Positions 1-5,738 of a DNA stretch of 64,000 nucleotides are shown in pieces. The notes beneath the pieces are model-generated. The model did not search any database. It had not been told where the DNA came from and saw only the letters and a list, made by a program, of their open reading frames with translations. Every line of letters starts with the position of its first letter. The stretch's first letter is position 1. The translations under genes were made by a program, and so were the position numbers. Source of the DNA: an uncultured Chloroflexia bacterium. Its GTDB lineage: Bacteria; Chloroflexota; Anaerolineae; CG2-30-64-16. The stretch lies in NCBI GenBank assembly GCA_963810095.1, contig CAWEMM010000006.1:1472001-1536000 (forward strand). Direction: 5' to 3'.

Positions 1-1279
1 GGTGGCGCGGGTGGCGCGCGAGCTCGGCATCAACGACGACCGCGTTTTTCGTGCCCGCGGGTGCTCCAGCTCGAGATGGGGCCTAACGAAAGCCTGCCGC
101 TGCCTGCCGAGGCCGCGGTGCGTGAAGCCGACGCGATCCTGAGCTGCCTGTCCGACCAGCCAGAACACCTGCACTATCGGATGCGCGTGCTGCACGCCAG
201 CTGGGGCCGGCGGGCGCAGGCTCGGCCCACGCGCCCGGCATGACGCTCGAGATCGCTGCAGCACGCATCGACACCGACTACGCGGCGATCAGCCGAGCAG
301 GCCCAGCTGCTGAGCCTCGCGCTGATCCTGGGCAAGCGGGTCGAGATCGTCACGACGGACAGCCAGCGCCGCGAGCACCGGCTGAACGTGCGGGTCGGCG
401 GCTGGGACTATCCGCCCGGCATCAACGACGGGACGATTCGCGAGGGCGCGTGGAGCAACCTGCCGCCCGGCGAAGTCTACATCGTGCCGCGCGATGGGGA
501 CGGCCAGATCGTCGTCAACGGCTCGATTCCCGGCAAGGTGCTGGGGCCGGCGGAGGAGCTGATCCTGACTTTCCGCGAGGGCCGGTTGGTCGACGTGGAG
601 CCGGAGGATGTGCCCGCCGCGCGTCATCTGCACGAGACGCAGATCGCCTACGCGGAGCGCCGCGGCGACACCAACTGGTCGAACCTGGCCGAGGTCGGCT
701 TCGGGCTGAATCCCGCGGTGCAAGACCTGACCGGCCTGGGCGATCGTGGACGAGAAGAAGGCGCACACGGTTCATGTCGCGGTTGGGCACAGCGCCGGGC
801 TGGGCGGCGACGTAGATTCGGTCATCCACTGCGACATGATCGCCAAGAAGCCGACTGTCTACGTCAACGGCCGGCTCGATCATGAAGCGGGGCGACTGGC
901 GCATCAACGAGGCGGACTGGCGGCTGGATCACCGCACGGTGACGGTGCCGGTCGGCTGGTGGGAAAGCATGGGGCAGATTGGCGCGGAGCGGCGCCGCGC
1001 ACCGAGCGTGAGTCGGGCCGGCTGACATGCGTGTGGAATGCGGGCCGGGGCCGGTGGGACAGCGCGCCGGTTGGCGTGGAGCAGACGGCGCGCCTGGCCG
1101 CTCGCGGTGTACGACCTGCTGCCCGAGAACGGCGTCCCGGTGGGCAAGGCGCGCGTGGTCGCGCTGGCCGAGCAGGCCGGGCATCCCGTGCGAAGCGCTG
1201 CCGCGGCCTGTTCTGGATCATGCTTCAGTTCGACCTGGTCCGGATGTCGCGGCGCGGTGCCGAGCCAATGCCGACGTAG
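1..1279 (+). CDS. M29/aminopeptidase-T (NicX-like) metallopeptidase with C-terminal winged-helix-like extension; 5' truncated, several apparent frameshifts
   Basis: Stitched ORF fragments 61-243, 388-885 and 746-1279 give SNLPPGEVYIVP, DGQIVVNGS, NLAEVGFGLNP, DEKKAHTVHVAVG and HCDMI, which are typical M29-like metal-binding motifs. Confidence 0.7.
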
Positions 1280-1328
1280 ACCGGAGACGTCGAAGAACGA
1301 GGGGTCGTGGATAGCTGGGGAGAGCATC

Positions 1329-2882: not shown

Positions 2883-2884
2883 CA

Positions 2885-5738
2885 ATGAGCGCTAGCATCG
2901 AAGCCTGGCGGATCGTTCCCTACGAAGGAGGCGCATCGCCCGTTCAAGAAGGTGCGGGTGCGCGACGAGGCCGCGGGTGCGCGCGGTCGTGCGGCACCTG
3001 ATGAACGACGAGTGCGTCGCCTTGCTCGGTCCGCCCATGAGCGAGAAGAGCCACCTGCTGCGGGACGTGGCGGAGGCGCTGGAGCAGGGCGGTCGCTTCC
3101 GGCCGCTGCATATCGACTTGTGGCGCACACGATCGAACGATGAGGCCGCCTTCTTCACCAGCCTTGCCGAGTCTGCTGGCCGACGAGCTGCGGGACGCCG
3201 GCGCCGCGAGTCCCGACGAGCCGGCCGAGCACGCGCGGTTCCAGGGTTATCTCGCCGCTTGCGAATGCGAGCGGCCGCAGCCTTGCGCTGCTGATCGATC
3301 ACCTGCAGGCGCTGCCGCACGACCTCGTCCACAGCCTGCTGCGTCGCCCTGCGCGCGGCCTACATGGAGCGCGAGGCCGACGCGCCGCACAGCCTGGTCG
3401 CGGTGGTCACCGGCGGCATCAACCTCGTCGGTCTGTCCGTCCGGCCCGACCTCGCCGTTCAACATCGCCAAACCCGTGGTCGCGACACCGCTGACCCTCG
3501 AACAGAGCCGCGCGCTGGCCGAGGCGACGCTCAAGCGCTGGAGTGCTCGGCATCCGCCAACGGCATGGACCGCTTGCTGAGCCTGGGCGCAGGCGACCGG
3601 TACCTGATTCCGCGGCTCTGCGCCGACAGCTCCGAACTGGTCAGCTTGCACCGCCTGCACCGCGTGACGTCGGCCATTGCGGATCGCGCCGGCGCGGGCG
3701 CTCGTCGCCCGCGGACGCGGCCGCCGCCCGTTCGCGCCGCCATCCGCATGATCGAGGAAGACCCGGACACGGTGCTGGACGTGCTGCACCTGCTCGACCA
3801 CGGCTCGCTGCCGCGCTCACGCTCGCGCCAGATGCCGACGCGCACCGGCACGGACCGGCTGCAGCTCTCGGGCGCGGTGGTCCTGGTCGGATGGGTGCTA
3901 CGGCTTTATGAACGAGGCGTACCGCGAGGCGTTGGCCGCGCACTTCACCACCGACCGGGTCGGGCACATGTTGCGGATTGCCGGGCCGGTGGAGCGAGGC
4001 GATCGCCTATCTCGCGCCGCAGCGGGCGCGCGTCGCGCGTCCGCAGCTGCTCGAAGCCATCGTCCAGATCGATCTATGCGAGCTGACTCGTCCGAACAGG
4101 CGTATCGGGCTGCTGGCCGACGGCCTGCGGCTCGGCTTCGGCCTGTCGGACATCGGCATCTACTGCGGCGCTGCCGGCCGACTGCTCAGCTCGACCGCGT
4201 CTATCCGCCCAAGGACGGCGGCCCGAGGAGCACGTCGACCTGCGCGATCCCGGGTGCGTCGAGGCCCAGACCTTCAACCTGGGCAACTATGCGCTGCGCG
4301 GCACCGCGGATGAGGCGCGCCTGGTCGTCGCGCTGGCATCGGCCAGCCGGCCGCTCGGCGTCGTGACGATCGAACGCTATGTGCAGAACCGCGATCCGCA
4401 CGAGCTGCCCGACGAACTGCCCGACCTGCTGCGTTTCCTGCAGCACGCAGTCCGGGGCGCTGGAAAACGTCATCACTCGGGCTGCCTACCGCGCCATCGG
4501 ACAGGCCGTGCTGGATGCCAAGGCCATGCAGCCGACCGTGGAGCGGGTGCTCGAGACGGTAGCGGAGGCGCTTGGGCTGCGACTACGGCGCCCTGTATCT
4601 GCGGGATGAGACCGCCGCCAGCTGGAGATGGCCGCAGCAGTCGGCAGGGTGGTGACGGAGGAGTGGCAGGCGCAGGCGCGCTTTCCCCTCGACGGCCGAC
4701 ACCCCGCGGTCACCGCGCTGCTGGAGGGGCGGATGTTGACGGCGCGAGGGGGCGAGGACGCAGAGGACCGCGTGCTGCACGACCGTTTCGGCCTGCACCG
4801 CTACCTGCGCGTCTTCCTGCCTCTGCTCGCCGGCGGCGAACAGCTCGGCACGCTCGAACTGGGCTACGCGAGCCGGCCGCATGCGCATGTCGGATGAGCT
4901 ACAAGCGGACGCTGGTCGAGTTCGCCGACCAGGTGGCGATCGCGGTGCATAACATGCTGCTGCTGCGGCGGACGGACGAGGCGCTGGCACGCGCAAGCTG
5001 GCCGAGCTTGTCGGTGGGCCGCGAGATTCAGCTCAGCCTGCTGCCGAAGGTCACGCCGACCGTTCCCGGCTGGCAGTTCGCGGCCATGTACGAGGCCGCC
5101 CGCACCGTCGGCGGCGACTTCTACGACTTCTGCGAATTGCCGGGTCCGCCCGCATCGGCTGGGCGTCGTCATTGCCGATGTGGCGGACAAGGGCGTGCCG
5201 GCCGCGCTGTTCATGGCGGTCAGCCGGACGATCATTCGCAGCGTCGCGCTTCACCGGCCGCGGCCCGGCCGTCTGCCCTGATGCGAGCGAACCAACTGAT
5301 TCTCGCCGACAGCCAGGCCGACCTGTTCCTGAGCGCGATCTACCTGGTGCTCGAGACCGACAACGGGCGCGGATTTCGTTCAGCAACGCGGGGCACAACC
5401 GGCCGCTGCTGGTACCGCGCTGCGGACCGCGCAGCTCACGCGAGCTGACCCAGCGCGGCATCATCCTGGGCGCGTTCGACGAGATCACGCTGCAGGACGA
5501 CACGGCTGGACCTGGCCGCCGGCGACGTGCTGGTGCTGTACACGGACGGCGTCACGGACGCGCTCAACGCGGACGGGCGAGGAGTTCGGCGAGCAGCGCC
5601 TGTTCGACGTGGTGCGGGGCAGCGCCGCACGGCAGCGCGCAGGAGATCCTGTGGGCGATCACGGGCGCGCTGGCGGGCTTCATCGGCGACACGGAGCAGG
5701 CGGACGACGTGACCTGCGTCGTGATCAAGAAGGACTAG
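2885..5738 (+). CDS. Degenerate STAND ATPase-GAF-GAF-PP2C (SpoIIE/RsbU-type) phosphatase fusion; many apparent frameshifts
   Basis: N-terminal [18 protein letters not shown] and SPFNIA; GAF motifs [15 protein letters not shown] and [13 protein letters not shown]2C motifs [29 protein letters not shown] and DDVT. Confidence 0.75.

Follow-up and report, generated by a model that had tools for sequence, protein, structure and literature searches.

Gene Organization of the Locus

The window analyzed here is a stretch of 64,000 nucleotides (nt) from an uncultured Chloroflexia bacterium (GenBank assembly GCA_963810095.1, contig CAWEMM010000006.1, positions 1,472,001 to 1,536,000 of the forward strand), and its first 5738 nt carry a cassette of three co-directional genes, separated by spacers of 49 and 2 nt. 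Gene 1 (plus strand, starting some 118 nt before the window edge and ending at 1279; 453 amino acids in its intact orthologue) encodes a protein resembling metalloenzymes of the M29/NicX fold; gene 2 (1329..2882, plus strand; 512 amino acids) encodes a putatively active STAND/ORC-like AAA+ ATPase; gene 3 (2885..5738, plus strand; 989 amino acids) combines a pseudo-ATPase module with a divergent GAF-like domain, a GAF domain and a PP2C phosphatase domain. The conserved core of the cassette consists of two genes, 2 and 3, and gene 1 is a facultative accessory, found in under half of the loci.

Over positions 1-5738 only the plus strand is coding, and the reading frame switches every ~100-250 nt, according to the list of open reading frames (ORFs) and the GC3 frame plot. 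The limits of the genes were therefore not read from single frames: they come from frameshift-aware protein-to-DNA alignment to intact orthologues, which returned the same gaps as an earlier, sequence-only reading of this DNA that had proposed three co-directional genes with gaps of 49 and 2 nt and many frameshifts.

Regarding the relatives, orthologues of the longest clean fragment occur in 7/7 genomes of the same genus and in 18/24 genomes of the family, with open frames of 404-572 amino acids, and collinear DNA alignments to ten relative loci start several kilobases upstream and all end at 5713-5739. In the relative of best quality, G024 (locus L014), every gene is intact: a GT4 glycosyltransferase of 309 amino acids is followed by genes 1, 2 and 3 with products of 453, 512 and 989 amino acids. 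The gap between genes 2 and 3 is 2-3 nt in the window and in G024, and the cassette is present as a single copy. The cassette is a real gene set that filamentous Chloroflexota share.

The ATPase Encoded by Gene 2

The gene 2 protein was studied through alignment A1, which holds 15 orthologues of constant length (~512 amino acids) reaching down to 48% identity. Its Walker A motif GIRRIGKTS (1877..1903, plus strand) and Walker B motif FFLDEFD (2145..2165, plus strand), already described as intact in the sequence-only reading, are invariant in A1, the latter at D274, E275 and D277; the other invariant features are FFGRE ahead of the P-loop, the patterns GIRRIGK.S and LDE.D, and the GFR and GQPNLIQ motifs. 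Gene 2 is presumably the catalytically competent subunit of the pair. In Pfam, it matches AAA_22 (38.3 bits) and nSTAND1 (34.5 bits, cut-off 27.1), and ATPase_2 with 30.9 bits, under the cut-off of 33.2.

The AlphaFold2 model, with a predicted local distance difference test (pLDDT) of 79, has two domains joined by a disordered linker at residues 145-162. Structure alignment of residues 142-504 with VIA-align places closest the archaeal ATPases PAB2304 (2qen; Z 16.7, root-mean-square deviation 7.0, 308 residues aligned) and SSO1545 (2fna; Z 15.9), followed by Orc1/Cdc6 (Z 15.8) and the plant NLR resistosomes (Z 15.0), and reveals an ATPase core that continues into a helical domain and then a winged helix.

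As for the N-terminal part, residues 1-145 (1329..1767, plus strand) form an alpha/beta domain, conserved in the 15 orthologues and modeled with a pLDDT of ~90. It has no Pfam match, and its best score in the ESM Atlas, 0.83, is below the usable level; the structure searches of gene 2 took the whole model, and their results are dominated by the ATPase module. The statement that gene 2 has no recognizable C-terminal effector or sensor repeats was correct insofar as no repeat sensor or effector is attached, but it overlooked this folded domain of ~145 residues.

A search with the gene 2 profile against 1.84 billion cluster representatives retrieved 1039 proteins at E ≤ 1e-30, many of them longer and with the module at the C-terminus. 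Among 25 longer relatives that were scanned, the N-terminal parts include BNR/sortilin, WD40 or FG-GAP propellers, a caspase with PEGA, a Ser/Thr kinase with FHA, a tubulin-like and a RapZ-like part, and a second STAND module. Gene 2 is therefore the minimal form within a large family of STAND-like proteins.

Gene 3: a Pseudo-ATPase Joined to GAF and PP2C Domains

The ATPase-like module of gene 3 (2885..3973, plus strand), with its helical and winged-helix parts, is a paralogue of gene 2 residues 146-503. BLASTP did not detect a significant similarity between gene 2 and the N-terminus of gene 3 (E 0.43), and the relation needed profile comparison: with hhalign, the gene 2 profile (A1) and the gene 3 profile (A3, 27 orthologues) align at 97%, E 8.6e-11, over 325 columns, pairing gene 2 residues 146-503 with gene 3 residues 9-360. 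The kinship of the two modules, proposed before on the letters alone, is thereby established. In the window's clade, the first ~360 residues of gene 3 have no Pfam match; those of other clades match AAA_35 (40 bits) or ATPase_2 (26-34 bits).

Both Walker motifs of this module are degenerate. In Walker A, GPPMSEKSH (3028..3054, plus strand), the Gly before the Lys has become Glu, with the Lys and Ser kept; in Walker B, LLIDH-LQ (about 3288..3308, plus strand), the second acidic residue is missing. There had been concern that these changes might revert upon polishing of the sequence; they are not a sequencing artifact, because they are conserved in intact orthologues. A motif census was made on 71 aligned gene 3 sequences, of which 66 were informative after leaving out four that lack the segment and one mis-picked gene 2. 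The pattern G....EK[ST] occurs in 27/66 loci, and 26 of those 27 have a DH-type Walker B; the canonical G....GK[ST] is found in 38/66, combined with DP, EH, DH or DN, and the remaining sequence reads GPRLSGTT. The window's clade thus swapped the Gly before the catalytic Lys for Glu and lost the second acidic residue, and the P-loop of its sister clade looks able to bind nucleotide. Arg159 (3352..3354, plus strand), which lies in the predicted interface and faces the nucleotide pocket of gene 2, is Arg in 66/66 gene 3 rows.

The description of this STAND module as inactive fits the degenerate Walker motifs, but the Lys and Ser/Thr of the P-loop are kept, and for this reason "inactive" is to be taken as a provisional term.

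Downstream of the ATPase-like module lies a GAF-like segment, GAF-A (4055..4528, plus strand; residues ~415-592). This segment is probably a divergent GAF domain: hhalign aligns it with GAF-B at E 0.0073 over 125 co-linear columns, and the equivalent segment from Amarolinea matches GAF_3 at E 0.015, covering profile positions 1-128 of 129, even if the segment alone has no Pfam match in the window's clade. GAF-B (4532..4959, plus strand) is clear, its orthologue matching GAF_2 with 50.2 bits and GAF with 42.1 bits. The C-terminal PP2C phosphatase domain of the SpoIIE family (5149..5732, plus strand) is full-length, because the orthologue matches SpoIIE with 175.8 bits (cut-off 25) over profile positions 1 short of complete at either end (2-191 of 192). 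Of the architecture reported earlier, two GAFs and a complete PP2C, the phosphatase and GAF-B are therefore solid, whereas the first GAF has weak matches. The isolated linker segment gives weak TPR hints in Pfam (E 0.04-0.2), and NCBIfam on the cassette returns far sub-threshold matches, SiaA with 63.6 and RssB with 41.8 against a cut-off of 700.

Gene 1 and the M29/NicX Fold

The gene 1 orthologue has a core of ~334 amino acids and an extra C-terminal domain of ~120, made of a beta-sheet and three helices, which alone has no Pfam match. Foldseek searches with its AlphaFold2 model (pLDDT 90.3) place NicX (7cn3, E 2.7e-18) ahead of the M29 peptidases PepS (4ics, E 2.1e-15), AmpT (2ayi, 3.6e-14) and AmpS (1zjc, 8.5e-14), and the crocagin proteins CgnE/CgnB follow at ~E 4e-9 to 1e-8. 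At the level of sequence, the gene 1 profile finds NicX only (E 9.8e-4) among PDB sequences, together with chance matches to IDO1, and the single sequence reaches NicX at E 1.2. In Pfam, gene 1 of G024 scores 17.6 bits with Peptidase_M29, below the cut-off of 27, and the orthologue of L064 scores 29.9 bits over residues 188-302 only.

In an alignment of 20 sequences, E269, H296, H314 and D316 never vary, and E196 is kept in at least 90% of the rows; alignment mapping puts E196, E269, H296, H314 and D316 at window positions 472-474, 691-693, 773-775, 827-829 and 833-835 (plus strand). The HxD of NicX aligns with H314 and D316. This Glu/Glu/His/His/Asp set may correspond to the ligands of the M29 dinuclear metal site, which it resembles more than the His/His/Asp of NicX. 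The M29 fold agrees with the assignment of gene 1 as a peptidase, a plausible one, though gene 1 may also be another kind of metalloenzyme.

The Conserved Core and Its Outputs

The distribution of the cassette was evaluated by a pattern scan with one genome per species, which gave 79 loci, 10 of them with less than 1400 nt of downstream flank. All 79 come from metagenome-assembled genomes or isolates of Chloroflexota (Anaerolineae, Anaerolineales, Caldilineaceae, Litorilinea, Ca. Amarolinea and the like), and the putative two-subunit switch is lineage-specific to Anaerolineae and Caldilineae-type Chloroflexota.

The gene 3 N-terminal module stands directly 3' of gene 2 in 69/69 loci with at least 1400 nt downstream. 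Gene 1 is directly 5' in 31 of the 69 loci whose upstream flank measures 1500 nt or more, namely in 21/28 where gene 2 is at least 50% identical to the query and in 10/41 below that value. The gene 1 profile found no orthologue in 5/5 genomes devoid of an adjacent copy, where it returned weak, partial, core-only matches (E 1e-16 to 1e-9) that are ordinary M29-like paralogues. The sequence-only reading had described a three-gene module in which the peptidase generates or processes the input; the module is reduced to two genes by these counts, and gene 1 cannot be the obligatory source of the input because it is facultative and not found elsewhere in those five genomes.

The output domain of gene 3 varies. 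Of the 50 loci whose downstream flank reaches 4600 nt or more, 40 have PP2C and 7 a histidine kinase, and three were not called, one of which is a histidine kinase by Pfam. The cultured species Litorilinea aerophila has the histidine-kinase form. In 8/8 loci, the histidine-kinase form is followed by a REC-TCAD9 gene (L038:14956-16518, L043:14359-16086, L047:15423-17006 and five more), TCAD9 being a kinase-like Pfam family that overlaps APH and Kdo matches and takes its name from "ternary complex" conflict systems. Histidine kinase and REC-TCAD9 protein would constitute a two-component pathway ending in a kinase-like output; in the window's genome, no TCAD9 match is above cut-off. A database search with the gene 3 N-terminal module found the same two fusions, to PP2C and to histidine kinase. 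Because sister lineages join the same pair to a histidine kinase and REC-TCAD9, the gene 2/gene 3 ATPase pair is best seen as a portable input device.

A quick maximum-likelihood tree of gene 2, with SH-aLRT support only and long outgroup branches, nests the window's long PP2C clade in a group with earlier branches of the kinase form (Amarolinea, then L035; supports 95 and 99). The G....GK[ST] forms are all gathered in another group, which has 47 members, and gene 1 occurs in all three main groups. As a lead, the tree suggests that PP2C replaced a kinase output in the window's lineage, and that gene 1 is old and often lost.

A gene for an SPFH/Band_7 protein lies on the opposite strand, two to three genes downstream of the pair, in the otherwise dissimilar loci L021 (16974-18422), L038 (16543-17550), L043 (16089-16907) and L019 (3948-5531); these genes are not close orthologues by tblastn, and the link may be due to chance.

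Predicted Association of the Two ATPases and Proposed Mechanism

The association of the two ATPase modules, suggested earlier as a hetero-oligomerization of two STANDs, was evaluated by complex prediction with gene 2 residues 146-512 and gene 3 residues 1-400, using our own alignments. The interface score ipSAE was 0.67, and 0.00 for the best of three controls; the mark of 0.67 is attained by 116/157 solved complexes and by 2/215 mismatched pairs, counts that are rough since our own alignments were used. Runs share at least 88% of the contacts, and the pLDDT of the partner is at least 83. On the gene 2 side, the confident interface comprises the P-loop region 184-197, D274, residues 407-419 and the C-terminal helix 494-506; on the gene 3 side, it comprises 156-167 (including Arg159), 188-199 and 313-324. 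The prediction supports binding of gene 2 to gene 3, as do the strict adjacency of the genes, the gap of 2-3 nt, the paralogy and one fused protein. The latter, P0233 (1257 amino acids), is a single member that joins gene 2 in frame to a short-type gene 3; it lacks the last ~12 residues of gene 2 and the first residues of gene 3, and is either a real fusion or the product of an assembly deletion.

The interpretation to which we incline, with moderate confidence, is that the core works as an AAA+ (STAND/ORC-like) switch of two subunits, coupled to a phospho-signaling output. It builds on the observed gene structure, paralogy, motif states, synteny and domain swaps; what we infer is that the proteins bind, which way control runs, and the part played by a GAF ligand and a substrate. 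In this mechanism, the ATPase modules of genes 2 and 3 would associate, with the Arg159 face of gene 3 packed against the nucleotide site of gene 2; ATP binding or hydrolysis by gene 2, together with a ligand at the GAF domains, would set the conformation that turns PP2C on or off; and PP2C would then dephosphorylate a phosphoprotein encoded elsewhere.

The Frameshifted Block and the Adjoining Insertion Sequences

The frameshifts form a block of ~9 kb (window coordinates ~-3470 to 5738) with ~65-70 single-base insertions, bordered on the right by insertion sequence (IS) elements and flanked by clean genes. Genes 1, 2 and 3 have 11, 8 and 29 shifts when aligned with the orthologues from G005, and 11, 6 and 26 with those from G024 (43-48 in total); upstream, 6 shifts fall in the GH2 gene (-3468 to -1188) and 16 in the GT4 gene (-1181 to -185), and the genes further upstream (-8856 to -3570) have 0-1 each. 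The remainder of the window contains long intact ORFs, for example GyrB, PPDK and an RpoD-like sigma factor.

About 40 of 48 shifts belong to the +1 class (~85% single-base insertions). Once restored, the frames of GH2, GT4, gene 2 and gene 3 have zero stops, and gene 1 has one, ahead of its likely start. The identity of the restored proteins to the outgroup G024 was compared with that of four intact congeners: it is 69.8% for gene 1 (congeners 64.7-66.4%), 85.3% for gene 2 (82.1-83.0%) and 69.8% for gene 3 (65.4-69.4%).

Two origins were considered for the shifts and rejected. Homopolymer errors do not account for them, as 14/48 shifts lie at homopolymers against a background of 0.28; nor is the whole genome rich in errors, given that the contig median of ORF N50 per 8-kb bin is 1302 nt, versus 666 nt here, and that the flanking genes are intact.

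Directly after gene 3 there is an intact IS481-type transposase of 380 amino acids (5915-7057), followed by a second IS element whose DUF772 plus DDE_Tnp_1_6 transposase is split in two ORFs (7109-7690 and 7772-8593). Synteny with the relatives is back from ~9159, beyond the IS elements, and the minus-strand gene of 407 amino acids that stands 3' of gene 3 in G001 is missing in the window. Partial copies of the first element (IS481-type) were seen on contigs C12 and C11.

A rival view of these data is that the cassette is a decaying pseudogene block beside IS insertions, non-functional in this particular genome. The accumulation of shifts in five adjacent genes next to almost clean ones, the long intact ORFs elsewhere in the window, the lack of a link to homopolymers, and the two IS elements with the loss of the next gene conserved in relatives all agree with decay; the stop-free restored frames, the absence of excess amino-acid divergence from the outgroup in all three genes and the prevalence of single-base insertions do not, the last being a spectrum that we associate with errors of raw long reads more than with natural decay. 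Decay is, in our judgment, quite unlikely. An unpolished assembly stretch beside repeats is the likeliest cause of the frameshifts, because the restored genes 2 and 3 have no stops and no excess protein divergence.

Distant Relatives of the Pair

Pairs of related ATPases exist outside the lineage of the window, and two types are proposed to describe them: type A has the GxRRIGKT motif and an N-terminal variable domain, and type B resembles AAA_35 and has its variable domain at the C-terminus. When 300 other genomes, sampled evenly from the phylum, were searched with the gene 2 profile, one match was obtained at E ≤ 1e-40, in G286 (L100, G286:C97 4961-9834), where a protein of 1009 amino acids combining TIR with an A-type ATPase is followed by an AAA_35 ATPase-caspase of 616 amino acids. 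Two further loci have ~30% identity and the same A-then-B order: in G032 (L019, G032:C167 6485-12455), a Ser/Thr kinase gene precedes an A-type protein of 677 amino acids and an AAA_35-TIR protein; in G030 (L020, G030:C56 4454-9976), an A-type protein of 1281 amino acids with a BNR propeller precedes an AAA_35 protein of 557 amino acids. Both partners of the distant pairs keep GK[ST] and hhhDE.

From these architectures, the A+B pair is older than the window's cassette, and elsewhere it carries effectors of conflict type. A broader scenario, which we offer tentatively and do not expect to be the correct one, is that a large undescribed family of two-gene A+B STAND-like systems works as an asymmetric heteromeric switch, equipped with immune effectors (TIR, caspase) in some Chloroflexota, and that it was domesticated in the window's lineage to physiological signaling, with site B disabled and the effector exchanged for a histidine kinase and then for PP2C. 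If so, a bacterial immune-receptor pair would have been turned into the input of a signal-transduction pathway.

In G286, a GT4 gene with a GT4-conflict match (32 bits) is found two genes upstream of the pair.

Signaling or Defense

On the grounds of conservation and outputs, a signaling role is favored for the cassette, although with only moderate conviction, over a role in defense, which seems rather unlikely. In the latter, the ATPase pair would act as an NLR-like conflict system that senses an invader, PP2C or the kinase with REC-TCAD9 would trigger dormancy or death, and the M29-like enzyme would be an accessory effector or processor. Gene 2 is indeed above the nSTAND1 cut-off, its modules stand behind propellers, caspase-PEGA or kinase-FHA in the longer relatives scanned, the distant A/B pairs are fused to conflict-type domains (TIR and caspase in G286, TIR beside a Ser/Thr kinase in G032), TCAD9 is named "ternary complex associated" in Pfam, and IS elements adjoin the cassette. 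Set against this, PADLOC-DB 2.0 gave no significant match (the best, for gene 2, had E 7.7e-4 and 16.4 bits over 28 residues round the P-loop; genes 1 and 3 had none), the window's form has no toxic effector domain, and its outputs are the standard currency of signal transduction. Moreover, the cassette is a single copy between flanking genes conserved across genus and family, and gene 2 is unusually conserved, with 75-94% identity between genera; immune sensors usually diversify. It is because of the null result in PADLOC, the single copy, this level of conservation and the conserved flanks that signaling is preferred to defense. A third proposal, that the pair acts on DNA in the manner of Orc1/Cdc6 initiators or TnsC/MuB loaders and that the phosphatase is secondary, draws on the structural neighbors of gene 2 (Orc1/Cdc6, Z 13-16; TnsC, Z 12-13; MuB, Z 11.9) and on its terminal winged helix, but NLRs and ATPases that do not act on DNA fall in the same Z range, the conserved neighborhood has no replication, transposition or partition genes, and the steady partners are GAF, PP2C, histidine kinase and REC; we give it very little credence.

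Several points weigh against the signaling switch. The P-loop of gene 3 keeps the Lys and the Ser/Thr and may still bind nucleotide; the complex score may reflect AAA+ likeness instead of binding proper to this pair, because AAA+ hetero-oligomers (ORC, RFC, NLRs) are common among solved structures; and the frameshift block is local and independent of homopolymers. The spread is patchy (1/300 genomes in the phylum sample), as is also typical of defense genes, and the TIR and caspase domains of the distant relatives point to an immune ancestry. Finally, no gene for a substrate, STAS protein or anti-sigma kinase is linked to the cassette in the neighborhoods scanned; STAS matches in the genome number 15, none of them in the window. 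The earlier proposal of a partner-switching phosphatase is weakened accordingly.

Other Features of the Window

Three other features were noted in the window. At 60922-62472 (plus strand) there is a GT4 glycosyltransferase of 517 amino acids that matches the Pfam family GT4-conflict ("Family 4 glycosyltransferase in conflict systems") with 98 bits. At 9098-12490 (minus strand), a protein of 1131 amino acids has four lamin-tail domains (LTD, 225 bits), and its gene is kept beside the cassette region in relatives. The ORF at 20536-21948 (plus strand; 471 amino acids) is LexA-like, with the LexA DNA-binding and S24 domains only in the last ~215 residues; its long N-terminal part may be due to an ORF called too long, as the DNA is GC-rich.

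Comparison with Known Systems

The sequence-only reading had likened the cassette to the inactive-STAND (iSTAND) ternary conflict systems, which Kaur et al. (2020, PMC7159879) define by MoxR AAA+ and vWA partners. The resemblance consists in a degenerate STAND-like module that serves as scaffold or sensor and in the occurrence in multicellular or filamentous bacteria; the cassette differs in that the degenerate module is paired with an active paralogue from its own ATPase family and in that the outputs are PP2C or a histidine kinase. Neither MoxR nor vWA was matched by Pfam at the locus orthologous to the window's or at 8 other loci scanned, and the gene 3 module matches AAA_35 or ATPase_2 in orthologues. 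Judged by the partners given in PMC7159879, none of which lies in the neighborhoods scanned, the analogy is to be abandoned, and the cassette is not a MoxR-vWA iSTAND ternary system.

The STAND/NLR immune receptors (Avs, CED-4/Apaf-1, plant NLRs, and the paired sensor/helper NLRs) have the same succession of NTPase, helical and winged-helix domains (Z ~10-15), and gene 2 approaches them also by its nSTAND1 score, and the distant pairs by their TIR or caspase. Unlike in NLRs, a repeat sensor is absent from gene 2, the window's form ends in a regulatory phosphatase, and the conservation is like that of a vertically inherited, housekeeping-type gene; to our knowledge, and after a literature search, a pseudo-ATPase paralogue fused to GAFs as the partner is not a described NLR layout. 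The best structural matches, over ~305-320 residues, are the archaeal PF01637-type ATPases (PAB2304, SSO1545) and Orc1/Cdc6, which are devoid of the N-terminal domain of gene 2; we know of no pseudo-ATPase-phosphatase partner for them.

As for the phosphatase, gene 3 has in common with the partner-switching proteins RsbU, SpoIIE and SiaA a full-length SpoIIE-family domain preceded by an N-terminal regulatory region, which is an AAA+ pseudo-enzyme with GAFs and not an RsbT-binding or receiver domain. Gene 1 shares its fold with the M29 aminopeptidases (PepS, AmpS, AmpT), NicX and CgnB/CgnE, and differs from its M29/NicX relatives by the extra C-terminal ~120 residues and by a Pfam M29 score below cut-off in the window's clade.

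In agreement with the earlier impression that the combination was not a described one, the articles reached by the literature search contain no account of a pair made of an active ATPase and a pseudo-ATPase protein of the GAF-PP2C or kinase form, their supplements, which lay outside the search, being places where related architectures may be listed. Most of the known STAND/NLR-type NTPases are immune or death switches built on a single chain, and partners of the pseudo-ATPase kind occur in ORC, in clamp loaders and in the MoxR-vWA iSTAND systems. In conclusion, the cassette can, on balance, be considered an undescribed variant of the STAND-type switches, akin to the immune receptors of bacteria, with signaling a more probable function than defense. 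It would add to the known systems a compact two-gene design, in which a live and a disabled paralogue gate a phosphatase or a kinase, and its natural variants, with site B intact or degenerate and the output being PP2C, histidine kinase, TIR or caspase, offer a series for dissecting such a switch. It would also give a likely role to several hundred proteins of wastewater and sediment Chloroflexota now named "hypothetical", "AAA family ATPase" or "RsbU-like", including one from Ca. Amarolinea, a filamentous bulking organism.

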